Assembly: GCA_964515075.1 (NCBI GenBank)
Contig: CAZETE010000004.1
Coordinates: 3,353 to 67,352, forward strand
DNA length: 64,000 nucleotides
DNA from: an uncultured Actinomycetota bacterium
GTDB taxonomy: Bacteria > Actinomycetota > Geothermincolia > Geothermincolales > Geothermincolaceae
Direction of reading: 5' to 3'
Positions within the stretch are counted from its first letter, which is position 1; each line of letters starts with the position of its first letter. A program made the position numbers and the translations under genes. This document shows, piece after piece, positions 15,101-56,201 of this stretch. The notes under the pieces are model-generated. The model ran no database searches. It saw nothing but the letters and a program-made list of their open reading frames with translations, and was not told the DNA's origin.

Positions 15101-15107
15101 GGGCCGC

Positions 15108-37333: not shown

Positions 37334-37449
37334 GCGGGTCGGAACCGGCGCCGGCTTTATGAATCTGCCCGGAGATGGTAGAATTGACTGCGTTCGGGAG
37401 GGAAAACGGCTTCCGCGGACGGAAATGCGGGTCGGGCGGATAGGAGAGC

Positions 37450-37698: not shown

Positions 37699-37718
37699 AG
37701 CCGCGGGCGCGCGGGCTT

Positions 37719-38699: not shown

Positions 38700-39712
38700 C
38701 CCTTCCTCGCGCCGAGGGCCGCCTTGATCTCCTTGAGGCGCGCGCGCATGGCCTCCCGCACCTGGGGGGGGTCGAGTATCTCCGCGTCCTCCCCGAAGGA
38801 GAGGGCCCAGGCCAGCAGGGTGTCCCGGCTCCTGGCCTTGAGGGTGAGGATGCCGCCCCCGTCCTTCTGCCGCTTGAAGGCATAGCCGTAGGAAGCGACG
38901 TTCTCCTTCACCCACCAGGCCACCTTGGGGGAGAAGCGCATGGTCACCTTGAACTCCGGCGAGTCCTCGAACTGCCAGGGCGGCTTGGCGGAATAGTCGC
39001 GCACCCGGAAGCCTTCGGGCCTTGCGAAGTCGGGCGCCTTGGACCTGGCTTCCGGGATCTCCACCTCTCCGTGCATGCGGGACACCCGGAAGCAGCGGAT
39101 GTCCGAGCGCAGGCGGCAGAAGCCCACCATGTACCAGCTGCCGTGCTCGAAGAAGAGGCCGTAGGGGTCGGCCTCGCGCCCCTGGGGCTCCGCGTCGTGC
39201 AGGGAGAGGTAATCGAAGCGCACCCTCTTCTGGTCGATGACCGCGCGCAGCAGCACCTGCAGGCGCTCCTCCGCCCGGCCGTCCCCGGTGATGCACCAGT
39301 CCATGGTGGGCAGCGCGTCCGGCCCGGCCGCGCCCAGGTCCGGTGTCAGCTTGAGCAGCGCCTTGCGGGCGTCCAGGGAGCAGGGGAAGGCTCCCTGCCA
39401 CACCAGCTTATGGAGCAGCCACAGGGCCAGCCGCTCGTCCGGGTCGAAGTCGATCTCCGGCAGGTAGTAAGCGTCCTTGGGGATGCGGTAGCCCTGCTCC
39501 TCCCCGAAGGGGTCGGTCGCCTCCACCTCGATGGGTATGCCCATGTCCCTCAACTCTCGCTTGTCCCGCTCGAACATGCGCTTGAAGGAGTTGATGTCGT
39601 CCTGCTGGTAGCCGCCGACCTTCTCCCGGATCTGCTCCAGGGTTACCGGCACCCGCGCCTCGAGCAGCGCGGTGATCAGGTTGAGCTGCCGTTCGGTCTT
39701 CCTCCTGCTCAC
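38696..39712 (-). CDS. HTH-WYL-WCX transcriptional regulator (PafB-like, first of a tandem pair)
   Basis: A 338 aa ORF starting at GTG: VSRRKTERQLNLITALLEARVPVTLEQIREKV... (wHTH), with the WYL region (..ADPYGLFFEHGSWYMVGFCRLRSDIRCFRVSRM..). Confidence 0.78.
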   Translation of the reverse strand: MSRRKTERQLNLITALLEARVPVTLEQIREKVGGYQQDDINSFKRMFERDKRELRDMGIPIEVEATDPFGEEQGYRIPKDAYYLPEIDFDPDERLALWLLHKLVWQGAFPCSLDARKALLKLTPDLGAAGPDALPTMDWCITGDGRAEERLQVLLRAVIDQKRVRFDYLSLHDAEPQGREADPYGLFFEHGSWYMVGFCRLRSDIRCFRVSRMHGEVEIPEARSKAPDFARPEGFRVRDYSAKPPWQFEDSPEFKVTMRFSPKVAWWVKENVASYGYAFKRQKDGGGILTLKARSRDTLLAWALSFGEDAEILDPPQVREAMRARLKEIKAALGARKG

Positions 39713-39784
39713 GTGGTCCCGCCCTCCGGGTAGATGGCTTCCGCCCCTATTATAAGCAAAGGGGGGCCGTAGTAATATAGCATC

Positions 39785-40345
39785 ATGTCCGCGGGTATCG
39801 TCTTCGCCGTTTTCGGCCTGGTCTTCCTGGCCGAGCTGGGGGACAAGACCCAGCTCATCGTGCTCGCCCTGGCGGCCCGGACGCGGGCGCGCACGGTGCT
39901 GGCCGGGGCCTTCTCCGCCTTCTTCCTGTTGGACCTGGCGGCGGTGGCCGCGGGGGCCGCCGTCTACCGCTGGCTGCCCCTGCGGCCGCTGCAGTTGGCG
40001 GCGGGGGGGCTGATGGCCCTCTTCGGCGCCCTCTCCATCCTGGGAAAGGCCGGCGGCCCCGGGGAGGAACGGGCGGGCGGGGGGTCGTTTATCAAGGTGT
40101 TGGGCCTGGTCATGCTGATGGAACTGGGGGACAAGACCCAGCTCACCCTGATGGCCCTCGCGGCCAGCCACGGGGAGCCGGCGTCCGTTTTCGTCGGCGG
40201 CACGCTGGCCCTGTGGACCTCCACGCTGCTGGCGGTGGCCCTGGGCGGGCGGCTCGCGCGGCGGGTCCCCGCGGGCGCCGTCCACAAGGTCTCGGGGGCG
40301 GTCTTCCTCGTCTTCGGCCTGGCCATGATCATGGACCTCGCCTGA
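39785..40345 (+). CDS. GDT1/TMEM165 (UPF0016) family cation (Ca2+/Mn2+):H+ antiporter-like membrane protein
   Basis: A 186 aa ORF with two copies of the E-x-G-D-K-T motif (AELGDKTQLIVLAL; MELGDKTQLTLMAL). Confidence 0.8.
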   Translation: MSAGIVFAVFGLVFLAELGDKTQLIVLALAARTRARTVLAGAFSAFFLLDLAAVAAGAAVYRWLPLRPLQLAAGGLMALFGALSILGKAGGPGEERAGGGSFIKVLGLVMLMELGDKTQLTLMALAASHGEPASVFVGGTLALWTSTLLAVALGGRLARRVPAGAVHKVSGAVFLVFGLAMIMDLA

Positions 40346-40386
40346 GGGAGCCGGGGTTCCGGGCGGGGTTATATTATAATGTGGGC

Positions 40387-41136
40387 ATGAAGAAGAACCT
40401 CTGGCTGGTGGCGCTCGGCGTGAGCCTGGCGTTCCTGTCCCTGGGACTCTACCTCGTGCACTACCTCGTCTTCCGGGATGCCCACCACATCTACATCTAC
40501 CTGGTGGGGGACCTGGCCTTCCTCCCGGTGGAGGTGCTCCTGGTCACCCTCATCGTCGACCGCATGCTGGGCATGCGCGAGAAGCGGGCGGTGATGGAGA
40601 AGATGAACATGGTCATCGGGGCCTTCTTCAGCGAGATGGGGCTGGAGCTGCTCAAGCGGTTCATAGCCTCCGGGGCCTTCCCCGGGGACCTGGCGGAAGG
40701 CGTCACCTTCACCGGGAGCTGGTCGGAGGCCGACTTCAAGCGGGCCGCCCTCGAGGCCCGCGAGTCCGACTACCGTCTGGACCCCGGGCGGGGCGGCCTG
40801 GCGGAGCTGCGGTCGTTCCTCGAGGGGGAGCGGCCCTTCTTCCTGCGCCTGCTGGAGAACCCCAACCTGCTGGAGCACGACACCTTCACCGACCTGCTCT
40901 GGGCGGTCAGCCACCTCTCGGAGGAGCTGTCCTTCCGCCGGGACCCCGACAGCCTGGGCGCCGCGGACTTCCGGCACGTCGAGAGCGACGTCCGCAGGGC
41001 CTTCCGGCTGCTCCTCTTCGAGTGGCTGCATTACCTGGCGCACCTGAAGGGCCGCTACCCCTACCTCTACTCGCTGGCCATGCGCACCAACCCCTTCGAC
41101 CGCGAGGCCCGCGCGGAGATAAGCGAGGCCTCCTGA
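40387..41136 (+). CDS. membrane-anchored hypothetical protein
   Basis: Two N-terminal transmembrane helices (MKKNLWLVALGVSLAFLSLGLYLVHYLVF...) followed by a soluble domain with no family I recognise. Confidence 0.45.
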   Translation: MKKNLWLVALGVSLAFLSLGLYLVHYLVFRDAHHIYIYLVGDLAFLPVEVLLVTLIVDRMLGMREKRAVMEKMNMVIGAFFSEMGLELLKRFIASGAFPGDLAEGVTFTGSWSEADFKRAALEARESDYRLDPGRGGLAELRSFLEGERPFFLRLLENPNLLEHDTFTDLLWAVSHLSEELSFRRDPDSLGAADFRHVESDVRRAFRLLLFEWLHYLAHLKGRYPYLYSLAMRTNPFDREARAEISEAS

Positions 41137-43425
<2,289 letters not shown>

Positions 43426-43468
43426 CCAACGCCCAGGGTCCTTGACGGAAGAGGAAGAGGGAAAGGAG

Positions 43469-44050
43469 ATGACCGTGCCGAGCGTAAAGGGAACCAGGAC
43501 CGAAGTGAACCTGCTCACCGCCTTCGCGGGGGAGTCGCAGGCCAGGAACCGCTACAGCTACTTCGCCAGCAAGGCCAAGAAGGAGGGGTACGTGCAGATG
43601 TCGCTGGTCTTCGAGGAGACCGCCAACCAGGAGAAGGAGCATGCCAAGCGGCTCTTCAAGTTCCTCGAGGGCGGCGAGGTCGAGGTGGCGGCGGCCTTCC
43701 CGGCGGGGGTCATCGGCGCCACCGCCGAGAACCTCAAGGCGGCGGCGGCCGGCGAGAACTACGAGTGGACCGACATGTATCCGTCCTTCGCCGCGACGGC
43801 GCGGGAGGAGGGCCTGGAGGAGATCGCCGTGGTGTTCGAGTCCATCGCGGTGGCCGAGAAGCAGCACGAACGGCGCTACCTGGGCCTGCTGGCCAACCTG
43901 GAGGCCGGCACCGTCTTCAAGAAGGACCAGCCGGTCAAGTGGCGCTGCCTCAACTGCGGCTACGTCCACGAGGGCGAAGGCGTTCCCGACAAGTGCCCCG
44001 CCTGCGACCACCCGCGGGACTACTTCGAGCTGCTGGCCGAGAACTGGTAG
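43469..44050 (+). CDS. rbr: rubrerythrin
   Basis: A ferritin-like di-iron four-helix bundle (..EKEHAKRLF.., ..EKQHERRY..) plus a C-terminal rubredoxin-like CxxC...CxxC (CLNCGY...CPACDHP). Confidence 0.88.
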
Positions 44051-44068
44051 GCGGTTGAGCCGGCCGGC

Positions 44069-44386
44069 TCAACCCCGCCGCCGCAGCGGCAGGCCGGACA
44101 GCCTCTTCAGCCAGGGCGTCGGGGGCCCCGGTGGAGCCGGGGCCCCCTCTTCCCGGGGGAAGGGGCTCTCGATGCCGTACATGGGCCGGCACGCCGAGGG
44201 GATGCGGCGGGGCCGGTCCGGCTGGCGGATGGCCTTCTGCGGGCAGGCCTCGTAGCAGCCGCCGCATTCGCCGCAGCGCCGCTGGTCGATGACGGCGACG
44301 TCCCCGGCCATGCTCAGCGCCCCCTTCTCGCAGAAACTCAGGCAGACGCGGCAGCCGACGCAGAGCCCCTCGTCCACCGTGTACAT
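44069..44386 (-). CDS. 2x[4Fe-4S] ferredoxin with Pro-rich C-terminal extension
   Basis: CVGCRVCLSFCE and CGECGGCYEACP motifs in the first 55 aa, followed by a ~45-aa proline-rich tail. Confidence 0.65.
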   Translation of the reverse strand: MYTVDEGLCVGCRVCLSFCEKGALSMAGDVAVIDQRRCGECGGCYEACPQKAIRQPDRPRRIPSACRPMYGIESPFPREEGAPAPPGPPTPWLKRLSGLPLRRRG

Positions 44387-44396
44387 GCGCGGCCCC

Positions 44397-45428
44397 TCAG
44401 CCTCCGAGGTACGACGAGAGGTCGGGCACCTCGATGCCGTCCAGGTTGTCGAAGGAGAGCGGGGCCCGGCCGGCCTGCACCGAGCGGATGATCCGGGCCA
44501 CCTGGTCGTTGACGGGGGTGGGCACCCCAGCTTCGGCCGAGCGGGCCGAGAGGTAGCCGTTGAGCGCCTCCACCTCGCAGGCCAGCCCCTTGCGCAGGTC
44601 CTGCAGCATGCTGGGCACCTGGTCGCGGTGGGGCCCCCAGACCATGCGCACCACGCCCACGGCCGTCTCCAGCCCCTGCGCGGCCACCTCCAGCATGACC
44701 ATGGGGTCCACGCCCTGCATGGGCTCCATCTTTATCCCCAGGGCCCGGGCGGTGAGGATGGTCTCGATGATGATGCACAGCGCGGCGGCCGCGGCCTTGT
44801 CGTCGTCGAGGATGCCGCCGTAGGTGCTGTCGATGGCCGCGCCCAGCCCGGACATGCTCACGTTGGCCAGCAGCTTGGTCCAGCGCACCCCCTTGAGGTT
44901 CTCGCTCAGGACCACCTCGCCGCAGTGGCCCAGCACCTGCTTGACCTGCTCGAGGCGCGGCGTGATGCGGCCGTCCAGCTCCCCCAGGTCGAAGGTCATC
45001 TTCTCCGGCTCGCTGGTCAGCTCGGAGACGCCGGGGCGCAGCCAGGTGGCCCCCCATCCGATGGCCCCGCCCATGGTGCGCTCCCGTCCCACCGCGGCGG
45101 CGACCTTCTCCTCGGGCACCCCGTTCTGCAGGGTCACCAGCACGCCGTCCGCGGCCAGATGCGGGATGATCTGGGGCAGCGCCGTCTCGTCGTAGGTGGC
45201 CTTGACCAGGTAGAGCACCAGGTCGAAGAGGCCCTCCAGCCCCTCCGGGGTGACGGCCTTCACCGGCACGGTCAGCTCCATGTGCCCGGTGACCCGCGCC
45301 CCGGAGGCGTTGAGGGCGTCCACATGGGCCCGGTTGGCGTCCACCAGGGTGATGTCCAGGCCGGCCCTGCTCACCAGGGCGCCGATGACGGTGCCCATGG
45401 AGCCCGCTCCCATCAGTGCCATGCGCAT
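44397..45428 (-). CDS. panE: 2-dehydropantoate 2-reductase (ketopantoate reductase family)
   Basis: MRMALMGAGSMGTVIGALV... with an N-terminal Rossmann fold and ApbA C-terminal domain. Confidence 0.78.
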   Translation of the reverse strand: MRMALMGAGSMGTVIGALVSRAGLDITLVDANRAHVDALNASGARVTGHMELTVPVKAVTPEGLEGLFDLVLYLVKATYDETALPQIIPHLAADGVLVTLQNGVPEEKVAAAVGRERTMGGAIGWGATWLRPGVSELTSEPEKMTFDLGELDGRITPRLEQVKQVLGHCGEVVLSENLKGVRWTKLLANVSMSGLGAAIDSTYGGILDDDKAAAAALCIIIETILTARALGIKMEPMQGVDPMVMLEVAAQGLETAVGVVRMVWGPHRDQVPSMLQDLRKGLACEVEALNGYLSARSAEAGVPTPVNDQVARIIRSVQAGRAPLSFDNLDGIEVPDLSSYLGG

Positions 45429-45557
45429 CGCGATCCCCTCCTTTCGATGACCTCACGGGCGGGTGGTTGCCGCCTCTACTCCATTATCGCCCATCCGCCT
45501 CGCGCCATCCAATCCGGGGCACCCGCACTCAAAGCGGCGGACGGGACGGCCGATAAT

Positions 45558-46220
45558 ATGACCGTCATGAAAAGGCTCTATCGTGCCGGGGGCGGCGCGG
45601 TCCTCGCGGCGCTCTCGTTGCTGGCAATCGTGTATATGGCGGGCTGCGGGTCGCCCCAGGCGCGGCCGGACATGGGGACGGAGACCGTCGACCCGCAGGT
45701 GGCGGCGGACTCCCTCTCCGTGAGGCTCAACGACCTGGAGGGCAAGCAGCAACAGCTGGAGCAGCGCATCCACGAACTGGTCAACCAGCGGCGGGCCGAG
45801 AACGGCCTGGCCGAGATGGCCTGGGAGGAGCGCCTGGCGGAGATCGCCCGCTACCACAGCCGGGACATGGCCGAGCGCTGCTACTTCGACCACCTGAGCC
45901 CGGAGGGCGAGGACTTCACGGCCCGCTACGCCATGTTCGGGTACGACGCCGGCAACCGGGTGGGCGACGTGGTCTACCGCGGGGCGGAGAACCTCTTCCT
46001 CAACAGCCTCTACAGGTCCTACACCTACATCAAGGACACCGGCGAGGTGGTGAAGTACGACTTCAGCACCCTCGAGGAGATCGCCCTGAGCACGGTGGAC
46101 GGGTGGATGGAGAGCGAGGGCCACCGGGAGAACCTGCTCATGCCCCACTTCATCAAGGAGGGCGTCGGCGTGGTCTTTGCCCGCGACGGCAGGATCTACA
46201 TCTCCCAGAACTTCAACTGA
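45558..46220 (+). CDS. CAP/SCP/PR-1-like domain lipoprotein
   Basis: A signal peptide and lipobox (LLAIVYMAGC), then the CAP domain (..ELVNQRRAENGLAEMAWEERLAEIARYHSRDMAERCYFDHLSPEG...HRENLL..). Confidence 0.72.
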   Translation: MTVMKRLYRAGGGAVLAALSLLAIVYMAGCGSPQARPDMGTETVDPQVAADSLSVRLNDLEGKQQQLEQRIHELVNQRRAENGLAEMAWEERLAEIARYHSRDMAERCYFDHLSPEGEDFTARYAMFGYDAGNRVGDVVYRGAENLFLNSLYRSYTYIKDTGEVVKYDFSTLEEIALSTVDGWMESEGHRENLLMPHFIKEGVGVVFARDGRIYISQNFN

Positions 46221-46270
46221 GCCCCTGACCGCGCCGGCGCCGGCACAACGGCCCGCCCGGCCCGCAAGTC

Positions 46271-46298
46271 GCAGGTTCGAGTCCTGCCAGGCGTGCCA
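46271..46298 (+). other. tRNA 3'-end-like fragment (T-arm GCAGG-TTCGAGT-CCTGC, acceptor strand, discriminator, CCA); putative integration-site remnant
   Basis: gcaggttcgagtcctgccaggcgtgcca reproduces the canonical T-stem/loop and 3' acceptor strand ending in CCA. I could not fold a matching 5' half upstream. GC content collapses immediately downstream. Confidence 0.4.
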
Positions 46299-46303
46299 GC
46301 AAT

Positions 46304-47242
46304 TCAAGCGGATGTGCGAGTATCCGCTTTTTCTTTTACATATGCCCTTGCATCGAAACTGAGTCGTATCCTGTAGTGCATGATGGTGACTATTGTCATC
46401 ACTCCGATTTGTGGAATCACAAACATCAGCACAGCAACGGGAATCGACACAACATCCGCCCAAGGATAGACAATCACGAAGGGCAAGCTGATCAGTGCAG
46501 TAATCACACAGACAAGAACAGCATCTTTCTTAAAGCTTATCCGCCTCTCTTTCTTCTTGCGATAGAAATAGTCGGCCAGCGCAACGAGGGAAACGAAGGC
46601 AAGGTAAACTACGACTGCCAATGGATACTCATAAGGCTTAGGCTTATCTAATGATTTGAAATATTCGTCCATTCTTTTATCTTCTTTTTCCAATATATAT
46701 GCCCCAAGACTATCTGCCCAATCAGCCAACTCGTCTTTCCCTTGTTGCTTATAGATTTGACTCAGCAAACCATATCCAGCAGCTTGGCTTGGCTGTCCGT
46801 ATTCAAATGCCAATGCCCTATAAGCAAGGGATTCAGCCTCGTTCAACATCCCATAATCAAGATAGGACATGGCTATAGCAATTAAAGTCGTAAAATCATA
46901 GGGGTTTGCATCAAACGCTTGCTGGAGAATCTCCGATACTCTCTCCCTGTTTCCGATTGAATTGTAGACATCGGCTAGACTTCTATAATCCCAAACAGAG
47001 AAGGACTCCGGGTCAAGCGCATAAGCTTTTTCATAGAGGCTTATAGCTTCTCTTGCCTCTTCTTGGGTAATCGAGTCCAAGCCCTTCTTGGTTATTGAAT
47101 CTGCTTGATCGATCAGCTTCTGTGCTTCGTCTTTCGATTGATCCTGTTGCGCCAATACTCCAACATTTGAGGTGGCCATAGCGGTGCACAGCAAAATAGA
47201 CCCAACGGTCAAGGCCTTCTTCCAAATGCCAAATGCATTCAT
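46304..47242 (-). CDS. secreted/membrane TPR-repeat protein (low-GC, foreign)
   Basis: The start is taken at MNAFGIWKKALTVGSILLCTAMA (signal peptide). It has TPR-like repeats and two C-terminal transmembrane helices. Confidence 0.55.
   Translation of the reverse strand: MNAFGIWKKALTVGSILLCTAMATSNVGVLAQQDQSKDEAQKLIDQADSITKKGLDSITQEEAREAISLYEKAYALDPESFSVWDYRSLADVYNSIGNRERVSEILQQAFDANPYDFTTLIAIAMSYLDYGMLNEAESLAYRALAFEYGQPSQAAGYGLLSQIYKQQGKDELADWADSLGAYILEKEDKRMDEYFKSLDKPKPYEYPLAVVVYLAFVSLVALADYFYRKKKERRISFKKDAVLVCVITALISLPFVIVYPWADVVSIPVAVLMFVIPQIGVMTIVTIMHYRIRLSFDARAYVKEKADTRTSA
46308..46337 (+). terminator. intrinsic terminator GCGGAT-GTGCGAGT-ATCCGC TTTTTCTTTT (for the CAP-domain gene)
   Basis: A 6-bp stem, an 8-nt loop and a 10-nt T-rich run. 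It lies within the 3' end of the convergent TPR gene. Confidence 0.5.
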
Positions 47243-47549
47243 ACTTAGCCTGCTCAGTTTATCGTCCTTTCTTCCCACAAAGCGAATGCCCCCTTTTCGC
47301 AAGTATTCTACCATCCATCAAGCCAGCATTGCTTTTCTACTCATCCCCACCCTCAGCTGGCGATACCCAGTATGGGGATACTGTAATCCTGTTCTGCGTT
47401 CATCAGTCTGGTTCGAACTTCGTCCACAGTGGGGTGCCAAATACAATAGTAAATCAGAGGGTATTACCTTCGTCCTGCTCTTAATGGGCCATGTTCCTTA
47501 TTAATTACCGTGCGATTTGTGTGCTACATGGTCACGCGCAAGGCGAGCC

Positions 47550-47921
47550 TCAGTCGTTTATTGCGTCCAACGCCCGTTGGCGTATCCTGTCTCGCTCTAT
47601 CACGGTGAACATCCCGGTCAAGGTAATGCTCTGCTCTCGAAGTATGCCTGACAAGATCTCTCCGGCTTCGTCCGGAGAAGCCGGAGCGAAGCGGAAGTAG
47701 ACGATGCCGTTGACATTGCGCGCCTTGTGCCGGAAGATCAGCTCTCCGTAATCACGGTCAAAGGTCAGGATGATACGATCCTCTTCGATTGCCCGTTCGA
47801 GCACTTGCCGGTCTGTCGCGCCAGGCATTTCGTCAGCGATACGAAGGACGTCATGACCACTCTCCTCGAGCAGCCTGGTACTTGACCGGGGAATGTTTTC
47901 GTTGGCAAGGAAGTCCATCAC
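47550..47921 (-). CDS. DUF5615 (COG4634) PIN-like putative toxin
   Basis: MMDFLANENIPRSSTRLLEESGHDVL...ILTFDRDYGELIF... is typical of DUF5615. Confidence 0.7.
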   Translation of the reverse strand: MMDFLANENIPRSSTRLLEESGHDVLRIADEMPGATDRQVLERAIEEDRIILTFDRDYGELIFRHKARNVNGIVYFRFAPASPDEAGEILSGILREQSITLTGMFTVIERDRIRQRALDAIND

Positions 47922-48163
47922 ACGGCTTTGGAGTCAAGAGGATAAAGGGATTCCTCACGCATGCATTCGGTCGCGAAGGCGAATATCGCCCGGATGTTCT
48001 CGGCAATAAGATTGGGGTACTCCTCAAGCACCCTGCTTTCCGTCCAGCCCTCGGCGAACAGGCCCAGGATAAATTCGACTGAGAGCCGGGTTCCTTTGAC
48101 CACGGGCTTGCCCATCAATACATCGGGATCAGAGGTAATAGTTTTTCTCCAATCGACTTCCAT
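47918..48163 (-). CDS. DUF433 (COG2442) putative antitoxin
   Basis: ..VLMGKPVVKGTRLSVEFILGLFAEGWTESRVLEEYPNLIAENIRAIFAFA.. Its stop overlaps the DUF5615 start (ATGA). Confidence 0.7.
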   Translation of the reverse strand: MEVDWRKTITSDPDVLMGKPVVKGTRLSVEFILGLFAEGWTESRVLEEYPNLIAENIRAIFAFATECMREESLYPLDSKAV

Positions 48164-48231
48164 CACGACTCCTTCCTTACAGGTATAGCGTACCACAAAG
48201 AAAAGACGGGGTCAGTCCGGGGTCCCGGGGC

Positions 48232-51183
48232 CTACTCCCCCGGCCGTTCCGGGAGGAGTTGGGGGTTGAGGATCTCCCGCAGGGTCAGGTCATCGCCGAA
48301 GACCAGCACCGGGATGCGCGCCGCGGGGTCGGCGGCGCCCCAGTCGGCGCAGGGGAAGACGGGGTAGCGCCCCGGGGCGGAGGGGCGGGCGGCCACGGAA
48401 CCGCTCACCAGGTCGACGCGCAGGCGGGCCAGCGCGGCGGGCAGGCAGAGGAACGCCGCCCCGCGGCTGTAGTAGCCGAGGGACTGGTCCATATAGCGGT
48501 TGCACTCGTAGGCGCCGCGCCGCGGCCCCTCGCGGGGGGGCTGCTCGCGGTAGAAGACGCTGTCCCAGAAGCCGCCGTTCATGTTGCAGGCCCACCAGTG
48601 CTCCAGGCCCCAGTAGCCCTCCAGCCGCCCGGCCTGCCCCTCCGGCCACCCCTCCGCCTCCAGGTAGAAGCCGAGGGCGTCGCGCCAGGCGTTCTGCGAC
48701 ATCCACTGGCAGTCGTCCCCGCCGCTGGTGTGCACGCATCCGAACTCGCGCCGCGTGGCCCGGTCCGCGGTGACCAGGTCCAGGCGCATGCGCTCCAGGT
48801 TGTCCGGCTCCAGCCCGGTCTGCCCCCCCGAGGCCAGCAGCCACAGCAGGCCGTTGGCCGGGTAGATGGAGCAGGCGTCCCGCTCGCAGGGCTGGGCGCC
48901 GGGGTCGCTGGAGACGGCGAAGTGGGCGCCCCGCCACATCGCCTCCCGCAAGGTCGCGTTGACCAGCTGCAGCCGCTCCTCGCAGGCGGCGATGAAGTCC
49001 TCGGGCCGCGCCTCCTGGGCCCCGGCCATGTCCGCCGCCGCCCGCACCGCCGCGGCCGCCTTCACCCCCAGGTAGGTCTGGTTGCGCCCGCTGATGAAGA
49101 AGAGGCGGGCCTGGTCGATGCTGTTGTCCGCGTTGACGTCGGGCAGGCCGTCTCCATCGGTGTCGCAGGAGAGGATGTACTCGGCGTAGCCCCGGACGCG
49201 GGGGAACAGCTCCCGCACCAGGGCGGTGCCGCCGGCCTGTTTCCAGTAAGCGTAGAGCAGCAGGATGAAGTCGGCGTTCTCCTCCACCTCCATGCCGAAC
49301 ATGTCGTAGGTCATGCCGATGATGCGGTTGTCCGTGCCGATGTCGTGGGACAGATAGGCGCCGATGCCGTCCTCCCGCTCGAAGAGCGTCCACTGGCGCA
49401 GCTGCCTCTCGAGCAGGTCCGGCCAGAAACTCAGGAAGAACCAGGCGCTGTTGTACTCCACGTCGATGGTGGACATGAAGTAGAAGGGCGGCCCCTCCCA
49501 GGCGGCGAACCATTCCCGGCCGTCCGGGTCGCTGACCCACCAGGCGTTGACGATGTAGTTCTGCAGGCCCAGGGCGGCCAGGCCCTTCCCCGCGGGGGTC
49601 ATGCCGCTGAGGCAGGGCTCGGAGAGCACCCCGTCGAAGAAGGCCGTCCTGGCCTCGATGTCCGCCCGCTCCGGCCCCAGCGCGTAGTCCAGCACCGCCT
49701 GAAGCGAGGTGAGGCCGGGGCCGTCGGGGCGGTTGTAGGCGAAGCTGAAGTCCCGCTCGCCCTCGACCTCCATCACCCCGTCCGGCGAGTGCGCGGCCAG
49801 CACCACGGTGCGCCGGGCCGACCCGCCGGGCGCCAGCCTGAAGCCCCAGGAGAAGCCGGAGTGGCCCCGCGGCCGCCAGGTGAAGGCCGCGTGATCGCAG
49901 GCGAGGGGGTAGCCTGCGGGGCCGGGCCAGATCCACGACGAATCCTCCACTTCCCGGTAATGCCAGTCGACGCCGGAAGCGTCGTCCAGGGCCACCGCCT
50001 CCTCGAAGCGGTACGCCGCGCCGGGGCATCCCTCGCCGGCGTAACTGCCGTCGGCGAAGTTGTAACGCTCGGAGAAGCGGTAGCCGGCCGCGCCCCCCTC
50101 GAGGGGGCGGGGCCTCTCCGCCTCCGACACGTAGCGGTGCGGCCGGGCGAAGAGGAACTCGCCCTCCTGCGGGGCCCCGGTGGGGTTGTCCAGCTCGACG
50201 TCCATGTAGAAGAAGGGGGCGCCGCTCAGCTTGAAGTCCTGCGGGTAGAAGGGCGCGGTCAGGGTGACGGTCGCCGCGAAGGGCAGCGAGGGGTCGCTGC
50301 AGCGGTAGGACACGCCGGTAATGGTCATCTCCTGGTGCATGCCGGAAAAGACGGGGTAGCGGTCGGTGAAGGGGAGGCAGCGCGCCTCCCCGCCGGGCGA
50401 GCGGAAGGCCAGCACCATCTCGGAGAGGTCGTCCGACCAGGTGCCGAGGGGGGACTGGCGCCAGCCCAGCAGCTGCGGCACCGGGTTGAGGCAGAAGCGC
50501 GAGCCGAAGCGCCCCAGCACCACCTCCGAGAGGTCCTGCCCTTCGCCGTTGGCGTAGCGGAGGGGCATGGGCCGGGGCACCCAGTGGCGGCTCTCCATCC
50601 CGTTGAACTCCAGCAGGGAGCGGCCCTGCGCCACCAGGCGCACGTAGCTGACGGTGGCCTCCCCCGCCTCGGCCTTGAAGGCGATGTCGACGCGGCCGCC
50701 CGGGGCGCGCACCCCCCGGGCGCAGGCCTCCCAGGGCACCCCGGCGCCCGCCCCGGCCGCCAGGTCGATGCCGGTCAGCTCGGGCAGGGGGACGCCGTCG
50801 GCGTAGACGGTGAAGACCCGCTCGCCCGGCGCGCGGCCCTGCCACTCCAGGCAGGAGACCTCGAGGTCGAAGACATCCCGGCGCAGGCCGCTGATGGAGT
50901 AGCAGAACTCCTTGCCCAGCCGGGCCTGGGCGAAGCGGTTGGCGTAATGGTCCAGCCCGTTGATGCCTAAAAAGCCGGGCGTGTCCAGCACCTTGCCGTA
51001 GGAGCCGCCGCCCAGCTCAACCACCAGGCGGCCGTCCGCCCCGCCGGGGGGGTGCGCCGGCCGGCGGGCCGGTGGCCCTCCCGTCTCCTTGGCGGCGGGG
51101 ACGAAGAGGCAGCAGGCCGCCAGGCCCAGCACCAGCAGCCCTGCCGCCGCCGCCGCCAGCAGGCTCATCCGCTTGTCGCTCAT
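48232..51183 (-). CDS. large secreted protein: N-terminal malectin-like carbohydrate-binding domain plus (alpha/alpha)6-barrel glycoside-hydrolase-like domain
   Basis: A signal peptide (LLVLGLAAC), a malectin-like segment (..FTVYADGVPLPELTGIDLAAGAGAG..) and a C-terminal region with six-hairpin-glycosidase-like sequence (..FAAWEGPPFYFMSTIDVEYNSAWFFLSFWPDLL..). I am unsure of the family assignment. Confidence 0.45.
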   Translation of the reverse strand: MSDKRMSLLAAAAAGLLVLGLAACCLFVPAAKETGGPPARRPAHPPGGADGRLVVELGGGSYGKVLDTPGFLGINGLDHYANRFAQARLGKEFCYSISGLRRDVFDLEVSCLEWQGRAPGERVFTVYADGVPLPELTGIDLAAGAGAGVPWEACARGVRAPGGRVDIAFKAEAGEATVSYVRLVAQGRSLLEFNGMESRHWVPRPMPLRYANGEGQDLSEVVLGRFGSRFCLNPVPQLLGWRQSPLGTWSDDLSEMVLAFRSPGGEARCLPFTDRYPVFSGMHQEMTITGVSYRCSDPSLPFAATVTLTAPFYPQDFKLSGAPFFYMDVELDNPTGAPQEGEFLFARPHRYVSEAERPRPLEGGAAGYRFSERYNFADGSYAGEGCPGAAYRFEEAVALDDASGVDWHYREVEDSSWIWPGPAGYPLACDHAAFTWRPRGHSGFSWGFRLAPGGSARRTVVLAAHSPDGVMEVEGERDFSFAYNRPDGPGLTSLQAVLDYALGPERADIEARTAFFDGVLSEPCLSGMTPAGKGLAALGLQNYIVNAWWVSDPDGREWFAAWEGPPFYFMSTIDVEYNSAWFFLSFWPDLLERQLRQWTLFEREDGIGAYLSHDIGTDNRIIGMTYDMFGMEVEENADFILLLYAYWKQAGGTALVRELFPRVRGYAEYILSCDTDGDGLPDVNADNSIDQARLFFISGRNQTYLGVKAAAAVRAAADMAGAQEARPEDFIAACEERLQLVNATLREAMWRGAHFAVSSDPGAQPCERDACSIYPANGLLWLLASGGQTGLEPDNLERMRLDLVTADRATRREFGCVHTSGGDDCQWMSQNAWRDALGFYLEAEGWPEGQAGRLEGYWGLEHWWACNMNGGFWDSVFYREQPPREGPRRGAYECNRYMDQSLGYYSRGAAFLCLPAALARLRVDLVSGSVAARPSAPGRYPVFPCADWGAADPAARIPVLVFGDDLTLREILNPQLLPERPGE

Positions 51184-51243
51184 AGCCTCATTCCAGACCG
51201 CGCGGCCGGGCCGGGCGCCGATGCCGGGAGCGGGCCCGCGCCC

Positions 51244-52803
51244 TCAGGCGTCGGCCGGGTAGAAGAAGAGCCCCACGGTGCCGGGGCCGGTGTGCGAGCC
51301 GATGACCGGGCCGGTCTCGTTGACGAGGATGCTTCCGGCCTCGCAGCCGAACGCCTCGGCCACCAGCTCCTTCAGGGCCTGGCCGGCCCGCTCGTCGGAG
51401 ACGTGGGTGACGCCCAGCACCGGCCGGCGGCCGCCCAGGTCCTCCTTGGCCAGCTCGACGATGCGCGCCACCGCCTTCTGGGTGCCCCGGGCCTTCTCCT
51501 TGGCGTCGATGGTACCGTGGATGGTCAGGATGGGCTTGACCTTGAGCACGCCGCCCAGGAAGGCCTGCGCCCCCCCGATGCGCCCCCCCTTGCGCAGGTA
51601 CTCCAGGGTGTCCACGGCGAAGTAGACCTTCGACCCGTCGACGACGGCCCGGAGCCGCTCCACGACGGCGTCGAGGTCCGCGCCGTCCCGGATCATCCCG
51701 AGGGCCTCCTCGATGAGCATGTAGATGCCCATGGAGGTGGACATGGAGTCCACCACCTCGATGCGGGTGCCCGCCATCTCGGCGGCGGCGGAGCGCGCCG
51801 ACTCCATGGTGCCGCTGATCCCCCCGGAGATGTGGATGGAGAGGATCTGCTCGTACCTGCCGGCCATCTCCTTGTACGCCTCCGAGAACTCGCCCACGCT
51901 GGGCTGGGAGGTGGTGGGAAACCCGTCGAAGGCCTTGAGTTTTGAGAAGAACTCCTCGTGCGTGAGGTCGACTCCCTCGCAGAAGGACTCGTCCGCGAAG
52001 ATGACCTTCAGCGGGACCACCTTGATATCGCGCTCGCGCACGTAATCCTCGTCCAGGTACGCGGTGCTGTCGGTCACTATGCCAATTTTCCCCGCCAATT
52101 CGCACTCCCCTTTCCTTGGTCCTCGCCTCTCCTCCATCAGGGAACAGGCCGCGCGCGCGGCCATCTGTTCGGCCTCCTTCTTGCTGCGCCCCTCTCCCTG
52201 CCCCGCCTTCTCCCCTCCCAGCCACACCTCGGCGTGGAAGAGCTTAGCGTGGTCCGGGCCCTCGCCCCAGGCGCGGTAGGCGGGCAGCACGCCGCGGGCC
52301 TTGACGGACCACTCCTGCAGCCGGGTCTTGTAGTCGGAGCGCGGGCCCCGGCTCGCCGCCTCCCGCATGCGCTCCCCCAGGACCCTCTCCACCAGCCTGC
52401 CGGCCTCCTCCAGGCCCTTGTCCAGGTAGACCGCCCCGATGAGGGCCTCCAGGGCGTCGGCCAGGACTGATTCCTTGCCCCGGGCGCCGTCCGACTCCGC
52501 CGACGGGCTGAGCAGTATGTGCTCCCCCAGGCCCGCCTCGCCCGCCGCCCGCGCCAGGGCCGCGTCGCTGACCAGCCAGGCCCGGGCCTTGGTGAGGTCG
52601 CCTTCCGCGGCCTCCGGGTCGCTGCGGTAGAGGTAGTCGGTGACCACCATCCCGAGCACCGCGTCGCCGAGGAACTCCAGCCGCTCGAAGGAGCCGGCGG
52701 CCCCGCCTCCCTGCCAGTGGGCGCGCGAGCGGTGGGTCAGGGCCAGCTCCAGCAGCCCCTTGTCGCGGAAGTCCAGCCCCAGGGATGCCTCGAGGTCCCC
52801 CAT
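51244..52803 (-). CDS. rnc: ribonuclease III fused in-frame to a DegV/FakB fatty-acid-binding domain
   Basis: The first 234 aa form a complete RNase III (..ERLEFLGDAVLG.., dsRBD ..KKEAEQMAARAACSLMEE). With no stop codon, a complete DegV follows (..KIGIVTDSTAYLDEDYVRERDIKVVPL....VGLFFYPADA). The internal sequence GGGGAG-N6-TTG at about 52096 could also allow separate DegV initiation. Confidence 0.75.
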   Translation of the reverse strand: MGDLEASLGLDFRDKGLLELALTHRSRAHWQGGGAAGSFERLEFLGDAVLGMVVTDYLYRSDPEAAEGDLTKARAWLVSDAALARAAGEAGLGEHILLSPSAESDGARGKESVLADALEALIGAVYLDKGLEEAGRLVERVLGERMREAASRGPRSDYKTRLQEWSVKARGVLPAYRAWGEGPDHAKLFHAEVWLGGEKAGQGEGRSKKEAEQMAARAACSLMEERRGPRKGECELAGKIGIVTDSTAYLDEDYVRERDIKVVPLKVIFADESFCEGVDLTHEEFFSKLKAFDGFPTTSQPSVGEFSEAYKEMAGRYEQILSIHISGGISGTMESARSAAAEMAGTRIEVVDSMSTSMGIYMLIEEALGMIRDGADLDAVVERLRAVVDGSKVYFAVDTLEYLRKGGRIGGAQAFLGGVLKVKPILTIHGTIDAKEKARGTQKAVARIVELAKEDLGGRRPVLGVTHVSDERAGQALKELVAEAFGCEAGSILVNETGPVIGSHTGPGTVGLFFYPADA

Positions 52804-52807
52804 GCGC

Positions 52808-53818
52808 CTACCCCGTCCCGGCGAGCGCCTCGATGCGGCCCGGCAGCCCGCCGGCGGCCGCCTCCGCCGCCACCTTCAGGGCCCCGGCCACGGCCCTGGC
52901 GCGCGAGCTGCCGTGGCCGATGACGCAGACCCCCTTCACCCCCAGCAGCAGCGCCCCGCCCGCCTCCTCGTGGTCCAGCTCCGCCTTGACCCGGGCCAGG
53001 GCGGGCAGCACCGGCTCGAGCGCCTCCCGCTCCAGCCGGCCCAGGGCGGAGGCGAGGGCCCCGGTGATGAAGGCGGCGGTCCCCTCGATGGTCTTCACGG
53101 CCACGTTGCCGGTGAAGCCGTCGGTCACCACCACGTCCACCCCCTTCCCCGCCAGGTCCCGCCCTTCCACGTTCCCCGAGAAGCTCAGCCGCGGGTCCGC
53201 CTCGAGCAGCGCGTAGGCCGCCTTGGCCAGCTCGCTGCCCTTGCCCGCCTCGCTCCCGATGTTGAGCAGGCCCACCCGGGCGTCCTCCCGACCGGTGAGG
53301 ATGCGCCAGTAAGCCGCGCCCATCAGCGCGAACTGCTTAAGGTGCTCGGGCCGGCAGTCGGCGTTGGCCCCCGCGTCCAGCAGGACCTTGGGCGCGTCGG
53401 CCGGCGGCAGCAGCACCGCCACCGCCGGCCGCTTGATGCCCTTGATGCGCCCCCAGGAGAGCAGGGCGGCGGACATGGCCGCCCCGGTGTTGCCGGCGGA
53501 GACCAGCGCGCCGGCCCTCCCCTCGCGCACGCATTCCGCCCCCCGCACCAGCGAGGAGTCCGGGTGGGCCCTCACCGACCAGGCCCCCTCGTCGGCCATG
53601 CCCACGGCCTCGGAAGCCTCTATTATCTCGAAGGGCGCCGCTCCCAGCAGGGCCACCTGTTCCTCGATGGCCTCCCGCATCCCGCTGAGCACCACCTCCA
53701 GGCCCAGCTGCTCGCGGGCCAGGACGGCTCCCGCCACCGTTTCTGAGGGAGCGTGATCGCCGCCCATGGCGTCCAGGACCACCCGGATGCCGGCGACTGG
53801 TTCCCGCTTTGCAGCCAT
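52808..53818 (-). CDS. plsX: phosphate acyltransferase
   Basis: A 336 aa ORF (..IRVVLDAMGGDHAP.., ..GFTGNVAVKT..). Confidence 0.9.
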   Translation of the reverse strand: MAAKREPVAGIRVVLDAMGGDHAPSETVAGAVLAREQLGLEVVLSGMREAIEEQVALLGAAPFEIIEASEAVGMADEGAWSVRAHPDSSLVRGAECVREGRAGALVSAGNTGAAMSAALLSWGRIKGIKRPAVAVLLPPADAPKVLLDAGANADCRPEHLKQFALMGAAYWRILTGREDARVGLLNIGSEAGKGSELAKAAYALLEADPRLSFSGNVEGRDLAGKGVDVVVTDGFTGNVAVKTIEGTAAFITGALASALGRLEREALEPVLPALARVKAELDHEEAGGALLLGVKGVCVIGHGSSRARAVAGALKVAAEAAAGGLPGRIEALAGTG

Positions 53819-53828
53819 GGAAGGGGCG

Positions 53829-54008
53829 TTAGTCTACCTTGGCGACCTCTCTTCCCGCGTAATATCCGCAGGAAGGGCAGGCGTGGTGGGGCAGTTTGGG
53901 CGCGTGGCACTGGGGGCATGCGGACTTGGTGGGCACCCGGCCGGCCTTCCACACCGACTTGCGCGAGGCCGCTCGCGAGCGGGACTTCTTCCTCTTGGGC
54001 ACTGCCAT
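53829..54008 (-). CDS. rpmF: 50S ribosomal protein L32
   Basis: MAVPKRKKSRSRAASRKSVWKA... with the CxxC...CxxC zinc ribbon. The start is chosen inside a longer ORF. Confidence 0.85.
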   Translation of the reverse strand: MAVPKRKKSRSRAASRKSVWKAGRVPTKSACPQCHAPKLPHHACPSCGYYAGREVAKVD

Positions 54009-54054
54009 ATCTTGCCACTCCTCCAATAGAATTAAAACCAAAGTCTGAGTATAG

Positions 54055-54627
54055 TTACTCTTCACCCTCCCGGTCAAGCCACTGCCTCAGCTTCTCGAGG
54101 CGCGGGTCGGTCCGCTCCTCCCGGCAGCCGCACTCCCCCCGATTGAGGTCGGCCCCGCAGGAAGGGCACACGCCGCGGCAGTCGGGACGGCAGAGCCGCC
54201 GGATGGGCAGGGAGAGGATGACCTGGTCGTTGACCATCTCGTTCAGCTCCAGCTCCTCCCCCTCCAGCCGGTAACTCTCCTCCCGCGGCACCTCCGCCTC
54301 CTCCCGCCCTTCCGGGGAGAGGAGGGGCAGGGTGGTGCGGGTGAAGAACTCGTCGACCTCCGCGGAGAAGGGGAAGTCCACCGGCGCGGCGCAGCGCGTG
54401 CACTCAAGGGGCAGGGTGCCGGCGATGGTCCCGGTGACGCGGATGCCGCCCGGCGAGCTCTCCAGCAGCAGGTCGAGGTCGGCCGGGCTGCCGGCCGGCG
54501 ACTCGCGCAGGCCCTCCTCCCCCATCGCCAGCAGGAGCCTTACGCGCAGGCGCTCGCGGGCGTAGGTGTCGCGCAGCAGCCTCCCCACGCCTATCTTCAG
54601 TTCCTTGCTGTCCAGATGACCGCCCAT
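54055..54627 (-). CDS. yceD: YceD/DUF177 family protein (23S rRNA accumulation protein)
   Basis: C-terminal Cys cluster (CRPDCRGVCPSCGADLNRGECGC). It occupies the conserved position upstream of rpmF-plsX. Confidence 0.78.
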   Translation of the reverse strand: MGGHLDSKELKIGVGRLLRDTYARERLRVRLLLAMGEEGLRESPAGSPADLDLLLESSPGGIRVTGTIAGTLPLECTRCAAPVDFPFSAEVDEFFTRTTLPLLSPEGREEAEVPREESYRLEGEELELNEMVNDQVILSLPIRRLCRPDCRGVCPSCGADLNRGECGCREERTDPRLEKLRQWLDREGEE

Positions 54628-54659
54628 CCATCTAGGTTAACGGCGGCGGCGGCCCCTTT

Positions 54660-56201
54660 TCAAGTGCCCGGGGCCGCCCCTTCCTCCCGCGCGAAGGCCA
54701 GGTCCAGGGTCTTGCGGGAGGGCCCGCGGGTGAAGCGGGACACCAGCGGCAGCACCAGCAGGGGCGCCAGCATGGACACCGAGGCGGCGAAGGGCACCCA
54801 GGGGGATTTGAGGGTGAAGGCCACCCCCATCTTCCCGGACCACCAGGCGGAGAGGGCCACCGGCAGGACCACGGCGCAGGCCAGCCCCGAGAGCATGGCG
54901 GCCCAGGCCCCCGCGCGGGTGGCCTTCCTCCAGAAGAGGCCGTAGAGGTAGGGGGCCAGGAAGGCGCCGGCCACCGCCCCCCACGAGAGGGACATCATGT
55001 TGACGATGAAGGTCCATTCCTTGAGGGCCAGCAGCAGCGACAGGGCCACGAAGGCCGCGCAGAGCGCGCGCATCATCAGGGTGGCGCGCCGCGGGCCCAG
55101 CCTTTCGTCTCCCCCGGCCATGTCGATGGTGACGGCGGAGGAGGAGACCAGGACCAGCGAGGAGAGGGTGGACATGGAGGCGGAGAGGATGAGCATCATC
55201 ACGATGATGGTCAGGGCGGTGGGCAGGTAGTCCTGGATCACGACCGGCATCAGGTTGTCCAGCCCGCCCGGTATCTGCCTGACCTGCTCGGCGGTGAAGA
55301 TGGCGCGGGTCACGGCCCCGGAGAAATAGGCCGCGAAGGCGCAGATGAAGGAGAAGGCGGTGGCCACGACGGCGGCCTTGCGGATGTGTTCCTCCCCCTT
55401 GATGGAGTAGAACTTCTGCACCATCTGCGGCAGGCCCAGCGGCCCCACCGAGGTCAGCACCACCAGGCTGAGCAGGCCCAGCCACGGCGGCGGGGCGTGG
55501 GGGGGGTTGGGCACCGCGTTGGCGTTGACGGCGTCGATGACCTCGGGCAGCCCCCCCGGGCCCGGAGACCCCAGCAGCTCGCCGGCTTTCCCGGTGAGGA
55601 AGAGCACCAGCAGCGCCGCTCCCGCCACCATGATCACTCCCTGGACGAAGTCGGTGAGGGTCACCGCCACGTAACCGCCCAGCACCAGGTAGATGCCGGT
55701 AAGCACGGCCATGGCCACCAGGGCCTGGGTGTAGTCGATGCCCAGGACGTTGGTGAAGAGGTAGGAGAGGCCCTGGTAGATGCTGGCGGTGTAGGGTATC
55801 AGGAAGATGAAGATGATCCCGGCCGAGACCCACTTCAGCCACCTGCTCTCGTAGCGCGCGGCCAGAAACTCCGGCATGGTCAGGGCGTTGAGCCTCACGG
55901 TCATGCCGCGGGTGCGCCGGGCCAGCAGCACCCACGCGAGCAGGGTGCCGAGCAGGACGTTGCCGGCCACGATCCACAGGTCGTTGAAGCCGTACTGCCA
56001 GCCGAAGCGGCCCGCGTACCCCACGAAGAGGACGGCCGAGAAATAGGTGGTGCCGTAGGCGAAGGCCGATACCCAGGGGCCGATGGTGCGGGAGCCGAGG
56101 AAGAAGTCCCCGGCGCTGCGGGTGCGCCGGGCGCTCCATATGCCGATGCCGATGAGCACGAGGATGTAGGCGGCGACGAAGGAGGCCTTGACGGCGTTCA
56201 C
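54660..56201 (-). CDS. sodium:solute symporter (SSS) family transporter
   Basis: A 513 aa protein with about 13 transmembrane helices and SSS-family sequence features (..GRFGWQYGFNDLW..). Confidence 0.8.
   Translation of the reverse strand: MNAVKASFVAAYILVLIGIGIWSARRTRSAGDFFLGSRTIGPWVSAFAYGTTYFSAVLFVGYAGRFGWQYGFNDLWIVAGNVLLGTLLAWVLLARRTRGMTVRLNALTMPEFLAARYESRWLKWVSAGIIFIFLIPYTASIYQGLSYLFTNVLGIDYTQALVAMAVLTGIYLVLGGYVAVTLTDFVQGVIMVAGAALLVLFLTGKAGELLGSPGPGGLPEVIDAVNANAVPNPPHAPPPWLGLLSLVVLTSVGPLGLPQMVQKFYSIKGEEHIRKAAVVATAFSFICAFAAYFSGAVTRAIFTAEQVRQIPGGLDNLMPVVIQDYLPTALTIIVMMLILSASMSTLSSLVLVSSSAVTIDMAGGDERLGPRRATLMMRALCAAFVALSLLLALKEWTFIVNMMSLSWGAVAGAFLAPYLYGLFWRKATRAGAWAAMLSGLACAVVLPVALSAWWSGKMGVAFTLKSPWVPFAASVSMLAPLLVLPLVSRFTRGPSRKTLDLAFAREEGAAPGT

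Follow-up and report, generated by a model that had tools for sequence, protein, structure and literature searches.

A low-GC islet in an uncultured Actinomycetota genome, probably a captured fragment of a tRNA-Arg-anchored array of integrase-less cassettes

The 64-kb stretch of DNA analysed here (hereafter the window) comes from contig CAZETE010000004.1 of an uncultured Actinomycetota bacterium and contains a single low-GC islet at 46299–48201, which directly follows the 3′ end of a tRNA-Arg gene. We conclude that this islet is probably a 1.93-kb excerpt of a tRNA-Arg-anchored array of integrase-less cassettes, captured at an ectopic site. Its left edge matches tRNA-Arg 3′ ends exactly, the corresponding site is empty in collinear relatives, and the same junctions and one of the two cassettes recur behind intact tRNA-Arg genes elsewhere. 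Positions are those of the window throughout, and labels such as L052 denote comparison contigs or loci.

The islet and its tRNA-Arg tail

The left edge of the islet is marked by the 28-mer GCAGGTTCGAGTCCTGCCAGGCGTGCCA (46271–46298, + strand), which is present in a single copy in the window, against 0 expected from shuffled sequences. Among 185,579 species-representative genomes it was detected at 33 loci; at 29 of these, according to ARAGORN, it forms exactly the 3′ end of a tRNA-Arg gene, with the anticodon TCT in 27 cases and CCT and CCG in one case each. The TCT carriers include two Actinomycetota metagenome-assembled genomes (MAGs) and a Ca. Geothermincolales MAG; in these lineages the tRNA-Arg(TCT) gene lies in a tRNA cluster beside tRNA-His, not between the CAP and GH116-like genes that flank the islet. 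Exact identity with the tRNA begins at 46268 and is preceded by a zone of ambiguous microhomology back to 46261, with 31–37 nt of the tRNA present. This tail comprises the end of the variable loop, the T arm, the 3′ acceptor strand, the discriminator G and the CCA, and its T-arm hairpin appears in the minimum free energy (MFE) fold. An earlier, sequence-only reading of the window had described it as a tRNA 3′ end lacking its 5′ half and had proposed comparing it with intact tRNAs. The description was accurate in both respects: the tail matches tRNA-Arg 3′ ends exactly, mostly of the TCT type, and it has no 5′ half, as ARAGORN finds no tRNA in the window and Rfam gives no tRNA match at E ≤ 10 over 44000–50500. 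In the whole window no Rfam family reaches its gathering score. The 45 nt to the left of the tail are a GC-rich spacer without similarity to a tRNA 5′ half, and the sequence 5′ of about 46261 is unrelated to tRNA. A weak Rfam match to YrlA over the tail (19.5 bits, gathering score 69) reflects the tRNA-like T arm.

The composition changes abruptly at both edges. In 200-nt intervals the GC content is 0.62–0.73 to the left of 46299, 0.39–0.56 over 46300–48200 and 0.72–0.78 beyond 48200; the mean is 0.484 for the islet and 0.695 for the rest of the window, and no other dip of this size occurs in the 64 kb. The GC drop noted in the sequence-only reading is therefore real, from flanks of about 0.70 and with two sharp edges, and the codon-composition profile then suggested agrees with it: GC at third codon positions is 0.46 in the TPR gene, 0.66 in the DUF5615 gene and 0.62 in the DUF433 gene, compared with about 0.95 in host open reading frames (ORFs). 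Both junctions are reproduced at 100% identity in independent assemblies (L001, L003, L007, L008, L009, L011 and L014). These spanning contigs come from Logan assemblies of SRR15734599–605, SRR31357136/7 and others, and from an ENA assembly (L007).

The features of the islet and its flanks are the following.

45558–46220, + strand: CAP-domain (YkwD-like) gene of the left host flank (Pfam CAP), collinear with L052 up to 46225
46221–46267: GC-rich spacer of the CAP gene, host DNA
46268–46298, + strand: last 31 nt of a tRNA-Arg gene, with core copy A at the end; exact match to tRNA-Arg genes
46293–46298, + strand: core GTGCCA, copy A, the tRNA-proximal, attL-like junction; homology switches at this core at all sites
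46299–46337: hairpin T, AAGCGGAT...ATCCGCTT with T-runs, first element of the cassette (terminator scan, fold)
46299–47439, − strand: complete TPR cassette, 1141 bp, GC 0.45, with GTGCCA on both sides
46304–47278, − strand: TPR membrane-protein gene, 324 aa as called (Pfam TPR_14, 29.8 bits, cutoff 23.5)
47305–47313: −10-like motif of the TPR gene, TGGTAGAAT, read from the sequence and not flagged by the promoter scan
47340–47439, + strand: site X, about 100 nt, ending in core copy B (GTGCCA, 47434–47439); recurs in L054, L055, L059 and L017
47440–47549: 3′ region of the toxin–antitoxin (TA) cassette
47440–48201, − strand: truncated TA cassette, 762 bp, GC 0.53, 87–91% DNA identity to L054–L059
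47550–47918, − strand: putative toxin, DUF5615 (PIN-like), 122 aa (Pfam PF18480, 87.4 bits)
47918–48163, − strand: putative antitoxin, DUF433, 81 aa (Pfam PF04255, 71.6 bits)
48164–48201: leader of the DUF433/DUF5615 genes
48202–51183, − strand: right host flank including the terminator of the GH116-like gene (Pfam, fold), collinear with L052 from 48247
48202–48231: terminator of the GH116-like gene, hairpin and U-tract (fold)
48232–51183, − strand: GH116-like gene

The TPR cassette is composed of T, the TPR gene, its own promoter and leader, X and core copy B. T is terminator-like on the + strand and lies at the 3′ end of the TPR gene, for which 47243 and 47314 are alternative starts. The encoded protein has a hydrophobic N-terminal segment, TPR repeats and a hydrophobic C-terminal segment, with a sub-threshold match to DUF3021 in its C-terminal tail (20.9 bits, cutoff 24.7). 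It is rare, with three clusters among 5.8 billion proteins; a homologue on the P0002 contig shows 77% identity.

The second cassette encodes DUF433 and DUF5615, putatively a pair of the type II toxin–antitoxin type: the two genes are adjacent, the DUF433 stop overlaps the DUF5615 start (TGATG), and both proteins score above the Pfam thresholds. An identical DUF5615 protein is present on 14 contigs. In L054, L055 and L059 this cassette runs on into GAGAGATGCGGAT and then into X and GTGCCA. The window copy ends at 48201, about 67 nt short, where it abuts the U-tract and hairpin of the GH116-like terminator, and its BLAST homology to L054–L059 always breaks off at this position. An att-like site at the right edge (GCGTACCA, 48190–48199) was considered and rejected, as it lies inside the homology with L054, L055 and L059 that ends at 48201; the GTACCA at 48194–48199 likewise lies within the conserved TA cassette.

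As the sequence-only reading had noted, the islet encodes no integrase: Pfam identifies only the TPR membrane protein, DUF5615 and DUF433. Ten candidates among the window ORFs, covering part of the window, were all housekeeping enzymes. A further claim, that the AT-rich stretch at 47315–47549 is a sign of decay, did not survive. This stretch is made up of the TPR promoter and leader and of X, followed by the 3′ region of the TA cassette. Other arrays contain copies with 87% identity to this stretch, which is the best-conserved non-coding element of the system. Similarly, none of the cassettes of this family that we have seen comes with an integrase, so that its lack here is not a sign of local decay. 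PADLOC gave no defence match for the TPR, DUF433 and DUF5615 proteins or for the L055 cassette proteins; only an MntA-like protein of L017 matches, to the candidate system PDC-S09. An NCBIfam search of the islet proteins gave nothing further.

A variant of the islet exists in the same population. In L007, positions 1548–5555 replace window positions 46847–47191: the TPR gene is interrupted by 4 kb with a loss of 345 bp, and the insert carries an IS21-family pair (a 410-aa transposase and IstB) and an IS3-family pair (HTH_Tnp_1 and rve). This interruption by insertion sequences (ISs) indicates that the islet is dispensable in nature. Contigs L010, L013 and L015, also of this population, break at window position 47192. 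Elsewhere in the window, a mild GC dip (0.62) at 3001–4000 lies upstream of a homocysteine-biosynthesis (HcyBio) gene (3932–5119), adjoined by a 134-aa ORF without a Pfam match.

The 28-mer loci outside the 29 tRNA-Arg genes are a contig-end copy (L049), a displaced fragment (L051) and two Arenicellales loci. L051 (737–782, minus strand), from a Thermodesulfobacteriota MAG that also contains the L049 copy (32–59), is a 45-nt 3′ piece of tRNA-Arg(TCT) that starts in the anticodon loop, has its own terminator downstream and lacks a 5′ half. In contrast to the window, this piece fits the textbook picture of a displaced att fragment, belonging to a different element of the anticodon-loop type. In the Arenicellales MAGs (L040 4403–4775, L044 474–858) the 28-mer lies between tRNA-Pro and tRNA-His, where no tRNA-Arg is called. 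The Rfam model Intron_gpI matches L040 4437–4629 (35.6 bits, E 2e-7, below gathering), which suggests that a group I intron splits tRNA-Arg(TCT) at these loci.

Empty sites in relatives and arrays behind intact tRNA-Arg genes

Homologues of the neighboring CAP-domain protein led to two long contigs from relatives, L052 and L053. L052 and the window are collinear for 20 kb, with a DNA identity of 86–91%; positions 1652–10608 of L052 correspond to window positions 37344–46225 and 10710–17349 to 48247–54867. The spacer between the convergent CAP and GH116-like genes measures 101 nt in L052 and 2021 nt in the window. The more distant L053 has the same synteny and a 109-nt spacer, and neither contig contains a tRNA or the islet between these genes. 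The islet is therefore an insertion in the lineage of the window, an indel of the kind that the sequence-only reading had proposed to look for among related strains. That lineage lies near Ca. Geothermincolia, the SHMT of the host sharing 68–73% identity with the SHMTs of Actinomycetota MAGs and Ca. Solincola. As far as these sequences go, nothing indicates that this locus once had a tRNA gene; as the empty site has no tRNA, the tail was brought in by the islet instead of being an att footprint made at this locus. The earlier view of the tail as the footprint of a tRNA-targeting element is thus correct in one part only. It does mark a tRNA-targeting system, the same junction being found behind an intact tRNA-Arg in L055 and L059, but no tRNA was targeted here.

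The empty spacers have features of their own. A possible relic tRNA or pseudo-att site in the L052 spacer (TCCGAAGGTTGTAG) was rejected (p ~0.07); it belongs to the native terminator region, which also resembles the right flank of the window. In L053 an AT-rich element of 107 nt (MFE −53.9 kcal/mol, z −9.9) fills the whole spacer (10667–10775). Its terminal inverted repeats, 31 bp long, are perfect, and it is either similar to a miniature inverted-repeat transposable element (MITE) or a giant bidirectional terminator. This element suggests that the CAP/GH116 spacer took up foreign DNA more than once.

Array loci from related uncultured Actinomycetota were found via the 90% cluster of the DUF5615 protein: L054–L058 (JGI) and L059, a contig of 165.6 kb that shares its metagenome of origin with L052. 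In L055 and L059, ARAGORN identifies an intact tRNA-Arg(ACG) directly before T and low-GC DNA. The arrays are arranged as tRNA-Arg...GGCGTGCCA, T, cassette, X...GGGGTGCCA, T, cassette and so on, up to a last X...GTGCCA and the native flank. L055 contains four cassettes (825, 972, 1263 and 723 bp) and L059 six (821, 1288, 477, 1796, 793 and 1652 bp), with a GC content of 0.45–0.48 for the arrays and 0.63 for their flanks. The cassettes encode mostly small membrane proteins with no assigned function, Lcl_C fragments and toxin–antitoxin genes, in mixed orientation.

GTGCCA closes each of the 12 inter-cassette sites and each of the two intact tRNA anchors, and it is there that homology switches. 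X stands to the left of this core; to its right there is usually T, otherwise a cassette-specific hairpin. According to BLAST, the window segments repeated in the array loci are T (46290–46337, the CCA end and the hairpin) and X (about 47340–47446). Copies of T, 38–45 nt long, recur after the core in L017, L055 and L059 at 89% mean identity, the last one in L055 and L059 running into a tRNA-like segment. At the distal end of L059, X-GTGCCA is followed by a GC-rich terminator that, in our reading, originally belonged to the tRNA and was displaced from it by 7 kb. X and T each also occur alone, only on their own side of the core: the tRNA anchor is tRNA-core-T without X, and the junction preceding the TA cassette, like the distal end, is X-core without T. 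This separate occurrence argues for an exchange point at or next to GTGCCA.

X has no conserved secondary structure (RNAalifold on 12 sites, −1.2 kcal/mol, 8 pairs, no covariation) and is therefore not attC-like. Given its position, it looks like a protein-binding arm similar to that of an attP. The possibility that X is a decayed tRNA copy was discarded: local alignments were no better than with shuffled sequences (p ~0.4 for the window, ~0.15 for L017), and a D-arm-like motif that MAFFT aligns with tRNA is not significant. Rfam detects no family but tRNA in the arrays. No recombinase domain was found in any cassette or among the called genes 4–10 kb around the L059 array; the arrays as a group had no recombinase gene within 7–10 kb and no helper element within 10 kb. 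Nor did the roughly 12 cassettes show any integrase, relaxase or conjugation remnant, an absence that cannot prove an origin other than the decay of an integrative and conjugative element (ICE) or an integrative mobilizable element (IME). Phage- or plasmid-like carriers of the attP were sought in two scans of viral contigs, with 0 matches. A scan of JGI metagenomes with TCGTCCACNNTGKGGTGCCA gave 77 single matches, among which only L063, from the population of the window itself, extends to the full site.

Comparison of the arrays reveals their modularity. Apart from the X and T repeats, L055 and L059 have in common just two segments, the tRNA together with T (95%) and the TA cassette at the distal end (94%); the cassettes between tRNA/T and TA cassette are all different. 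The TA cassette is 87–94% identical across the window, L054/L055 and L059, whereas its neighbor on the tRNA side is the TPR gene in the window, a 93-aa gene in L054/L055 and a 204-aa gene in L059. In every array seen, the DUF433/DUF5615 cassette is the tRNA-distal (oldest) unit, possibly a founder with a stabilising effect on the array.

The TPR cassette is common to the window and L017, with 73% nucleotide identity over a homology that spans 47154 to 46296 and ends at the core. In L017, T, core and X directly adjoin one another, with an MntA-like gene next; in the window, X is found beyond the other end of the TPR gene. Judged from these two sequences, the difference reads as the signature of a circular permutation, with the order expected of an attP.

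The L017 locus (1444–2516) has no tRNA and lies between an AMP-binding gene and a HepT/MntA pair, with HepT partly deleted in L017. Its small gene differs by strain: the TPR gene in L017, an 80-aa ORF in L139 (5539–5900) and another ORF in L137 (about 9400–9900). L017 and L139 share the −10-like leader TGGTAAAAT, half of T remains in L139 and part of X in L137. These different small genes suggest that cassettes were exchanged there too.

A proposed history and its alternatives

In the mechanism that we propose, circles with an attP of the form X-GTGCCA-T would integrate serially into an attB formed by the tRNA 3′ end (B-O-P′...P-O-P′...P-O-B′), each new cassette shifting the older units outward from the tRNA. 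Since no cassette encodes a recombinase, this enzyme would act in trans. The islet would result from a single event in which a linear fragment of such an array was captured between the terminators of the two convergent genes. Neither of its outer ends is an att junction or a recombination core, the left one being cut within the tRNA and the right one before the end of the TA cassette; capture was therefore most likely illegitimate, by microhomology-assisted end joining and not by the cassette recombinase. The left junction shows an imperfect microhomology between host CCCGCAAGTC and tRNA TCCGTAGGTC. The TPR cassette keeps both sites and could be excised in trans, with a predicted circle junction of X followed by ...GGGGTGCCA joined to GCAATTCAAGCGG, and a predicted excision junction of ...CAGGCGTGCCA joined to AATACAATAG. 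The TA cassette is predicted to be fixed in place and probably helps to retain the islet. More tentatively, and with some doubt, the X-GTGCCA-T units might constitute a dedicated integron-like cassette system of Geothermincolia-like Actinomycetota, with serial insertion in trans at the last six bases of tRNA-Arg, a TA founder and ectopic seeding, as in the window and L017.

Several observations weigh against capture from such an array. By its T stem (GCAGG/CCTGC) the tail belongs to the TCT type, whereas both intact anchors are ACG (GGGGG/CCCTC), and the two types share only GGCGTGCCA. The donor must therefore have been a different, hypothetical array, and no TCT-anchored array was found. As no recombinase was identified and neither an excised circle nor an empty junction was observed, it is from the architecture alone that we infer site-specific recombination at GTGCCA. 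X is not significantly similar to tRNA, and its status as an attP arm follows from position only. The data come from about five independent loci, all on metagenomic contigs, and the family is rare, the other metagenome matches to TCGTCCACNNTGKGGTGCCA being close to the chance number by our estimate. It is also conceivable that the cassettes are what decay has left of larger elements and that gene conversion homogenised their repeats. The capture mode, be it non-homologous end joining or microhomology, is a conjecture.

An unlikely alternative is that the cognate recombinase inserted a two-cassette circle into a pseudo-att site, the tRNA-like tail being the attP copy of the element. Canonical tRNA integration does leave an element-supplied tRNA 3′ part followed by element DNA, and the imperfect microhomology at the left junction would fit such a site. 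However, X and not a T arm precedes the core at 12 of 12 inter-cassette sites, so that an excised circle would lack the perfect 31-nt tRNA tail. In addition, the right end of the islet does not have the X and core expected of a site-specific product, and the T-arm-like motif of the L052 spacer is part of the native terminator (p ~0.07).

We consider it just as improbable that an ordinary chromosomal fragment of lower GC content was acquired horizontally, with X and T as dispersed intergenic repeats of the MITE or repetitive extragenic palindromic (REP) type. The repeats are short, AT-rich and rare in databases, T resembles a plain terminator, and no recombinase was found, all of which would suit this explanation. 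Yet homology between arrays switches at GTGCCA, in the middle of the composite and not at its outer edges, and X and T are found separately, each on its side of the core. Moreover, the arrays are polar, running from the tRNA to a distal X-core-native terminator, and L055 and L059 keep both ends with wholly different sets of cassettes.

Decay in situ, in which an element hit a resident tRNA-Arg at this locus and the integrase, the tRNA 5′ half and the distal repeat were then lost, is very unlikely. It would account for a tRNA 3′ end that directly abuts foreign low-GC DNA and for the missing integrase, and the IS insertions in the variant strain could be seen as ongoing decay. It requires, however, at least three precise losses instead of one insertion, while two collinear relatives have about 100 nt and no tRNA at the site, the 45 nt to the left of the tail are unlike a tRNA 5′ half, and the tRNA-Arg(TCT) gene of related MAGs is clustered beside tRNA-His. 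Finally, an assembly or binning chimera of a high-GC and a low-GC organism, to which the abrupt GC step at a conserved tRNA-like sequence (a typical mis-join point) might have pointed, is refuted by the independent contigs from different runs and projects that span both junctions at 100%.

Comparison with known systems

The islet resembles a canonical tRNA island in being absent from relatives and deviant in composition. Intact tRNA genes are found upstream in L055 and L059 and not in the window, and the islet has no integrase of its own. Flanking att repeats bound only the TPR cassette (GTGCCA at 46293–46298 and 47434–47439), the islet having no repeat at its right end; the only other 16-mer match to the tRNA tail in the window, with three mismatches, is at chance level.

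In tandem accretion, integrative elements insert serially at a tRNA 3′ end; cis-mobilizable elements (CIMEs) are described as decayed ICEs or IMEs, usually several kilobases long and single or paired (Pavlovic et al. 2004; PMC5704250). The TPR cassette, like those of L055 and L059, resembles a CIME in having att sites on both sides and no recombination or transfer genes. As in tandem accretion, the recombinase is presumed to act in trans and newer units adjoin the target gene. In contrast, our arrays consist of four to six units of 0.5–1.8 kb, built as promoter-gene-terminator modules and sharing a conserved X-core-T composite of about 140 nt that is not tRNA-like in X; the units contain no trace of integrase or transfer genes, and no intact helper lies nearby.

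The tycheposon islands of Prochlorococcus grow by successive integrations at tRNA genes, including tRNA-Arg(TCT), with partial tRNA copies separating the elements and degenerate remnants scattered; tycheposons carry tyrosine recombinases and replication modules (bioRxiv 10.1101/2020.12.28.424599). The arrays described here would likewise have grown at tRNA genes by successive integration. They differ in that their units encode no recombinase, that the separator is X with the last 6 nt of the tRNA and that they belong to another phylum. The ssrA-specific genomic islands of Dehalococcoides are integrated site-specifically at the 3′ end of the single-copy tmRNA gene (PMC3146451). A small stable RNA gene is thus targeted at its 3′ end there too; the vinyl-chloride reductase operon that these islands carry implies a size beyond that of single-gene cassettes.

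Integron arrays, especially the sedentary chromosomal ones of Vibrio, consist of small cassettes that encode mostly unknown proteins, include TA cassettes and are separated by a conserved repeat. These cassettes have no internal recombinase and are inserted at one fixed end. The present arrays share these properties: small, mostly single-gene cassettes without an internal recombinase, a conserved repeat, TA cassettes and probably one fixed insertion end. However, the array head is a tRNA-Arg gene, whose 3′ end serves as anchor, and not a platform of intI, attI and the Pc promoter. X shows no attC-like imperfect palindrome or fold, and T is a plain terminator. Furthermore, the TPR cassette, the one examined in this respect, has a promoter-like −10 motif of its own, and cassette orientation is mixed.

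The pdif modules of Acinetobacter plasmids are also small and integrase-less, include TA pairs and are moved by a recombinase encoded elsewhere. Their sites are dif-like 28-mers of XerC/XerD, arranged as inverted pairs on plasmids. The cassettes studied here are similarly bounded by short sites, lack an integrase and include a putative TA pair; unlike pdif sites, theirs are direct repeats with a tRNA-derived core, located on chromosomes, and no dif-like motif was seen in X.

A literature search for a matching cassette architecture turned up no described match. The combination of polar arrays anchored at a tRNA, miniature integrase-less modules and a conserved composite junction of about 140 nt, which we have not found described in the literature searched, therefore appears to be new. 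Instead of a decayed tRNA island, we propose to regard the islet as part of a cassette array that was copied into a neutral location between convergent genes, in a deep, uncultured actinomycetotal lineage near Geothermincolia. If the cassettes are actively moved in trans, they would represent a second, non-integron route to cassette-based genome plasticity and would offer a compact attB/attP pair, of interest to mobile-element biology and possibly to tool development.

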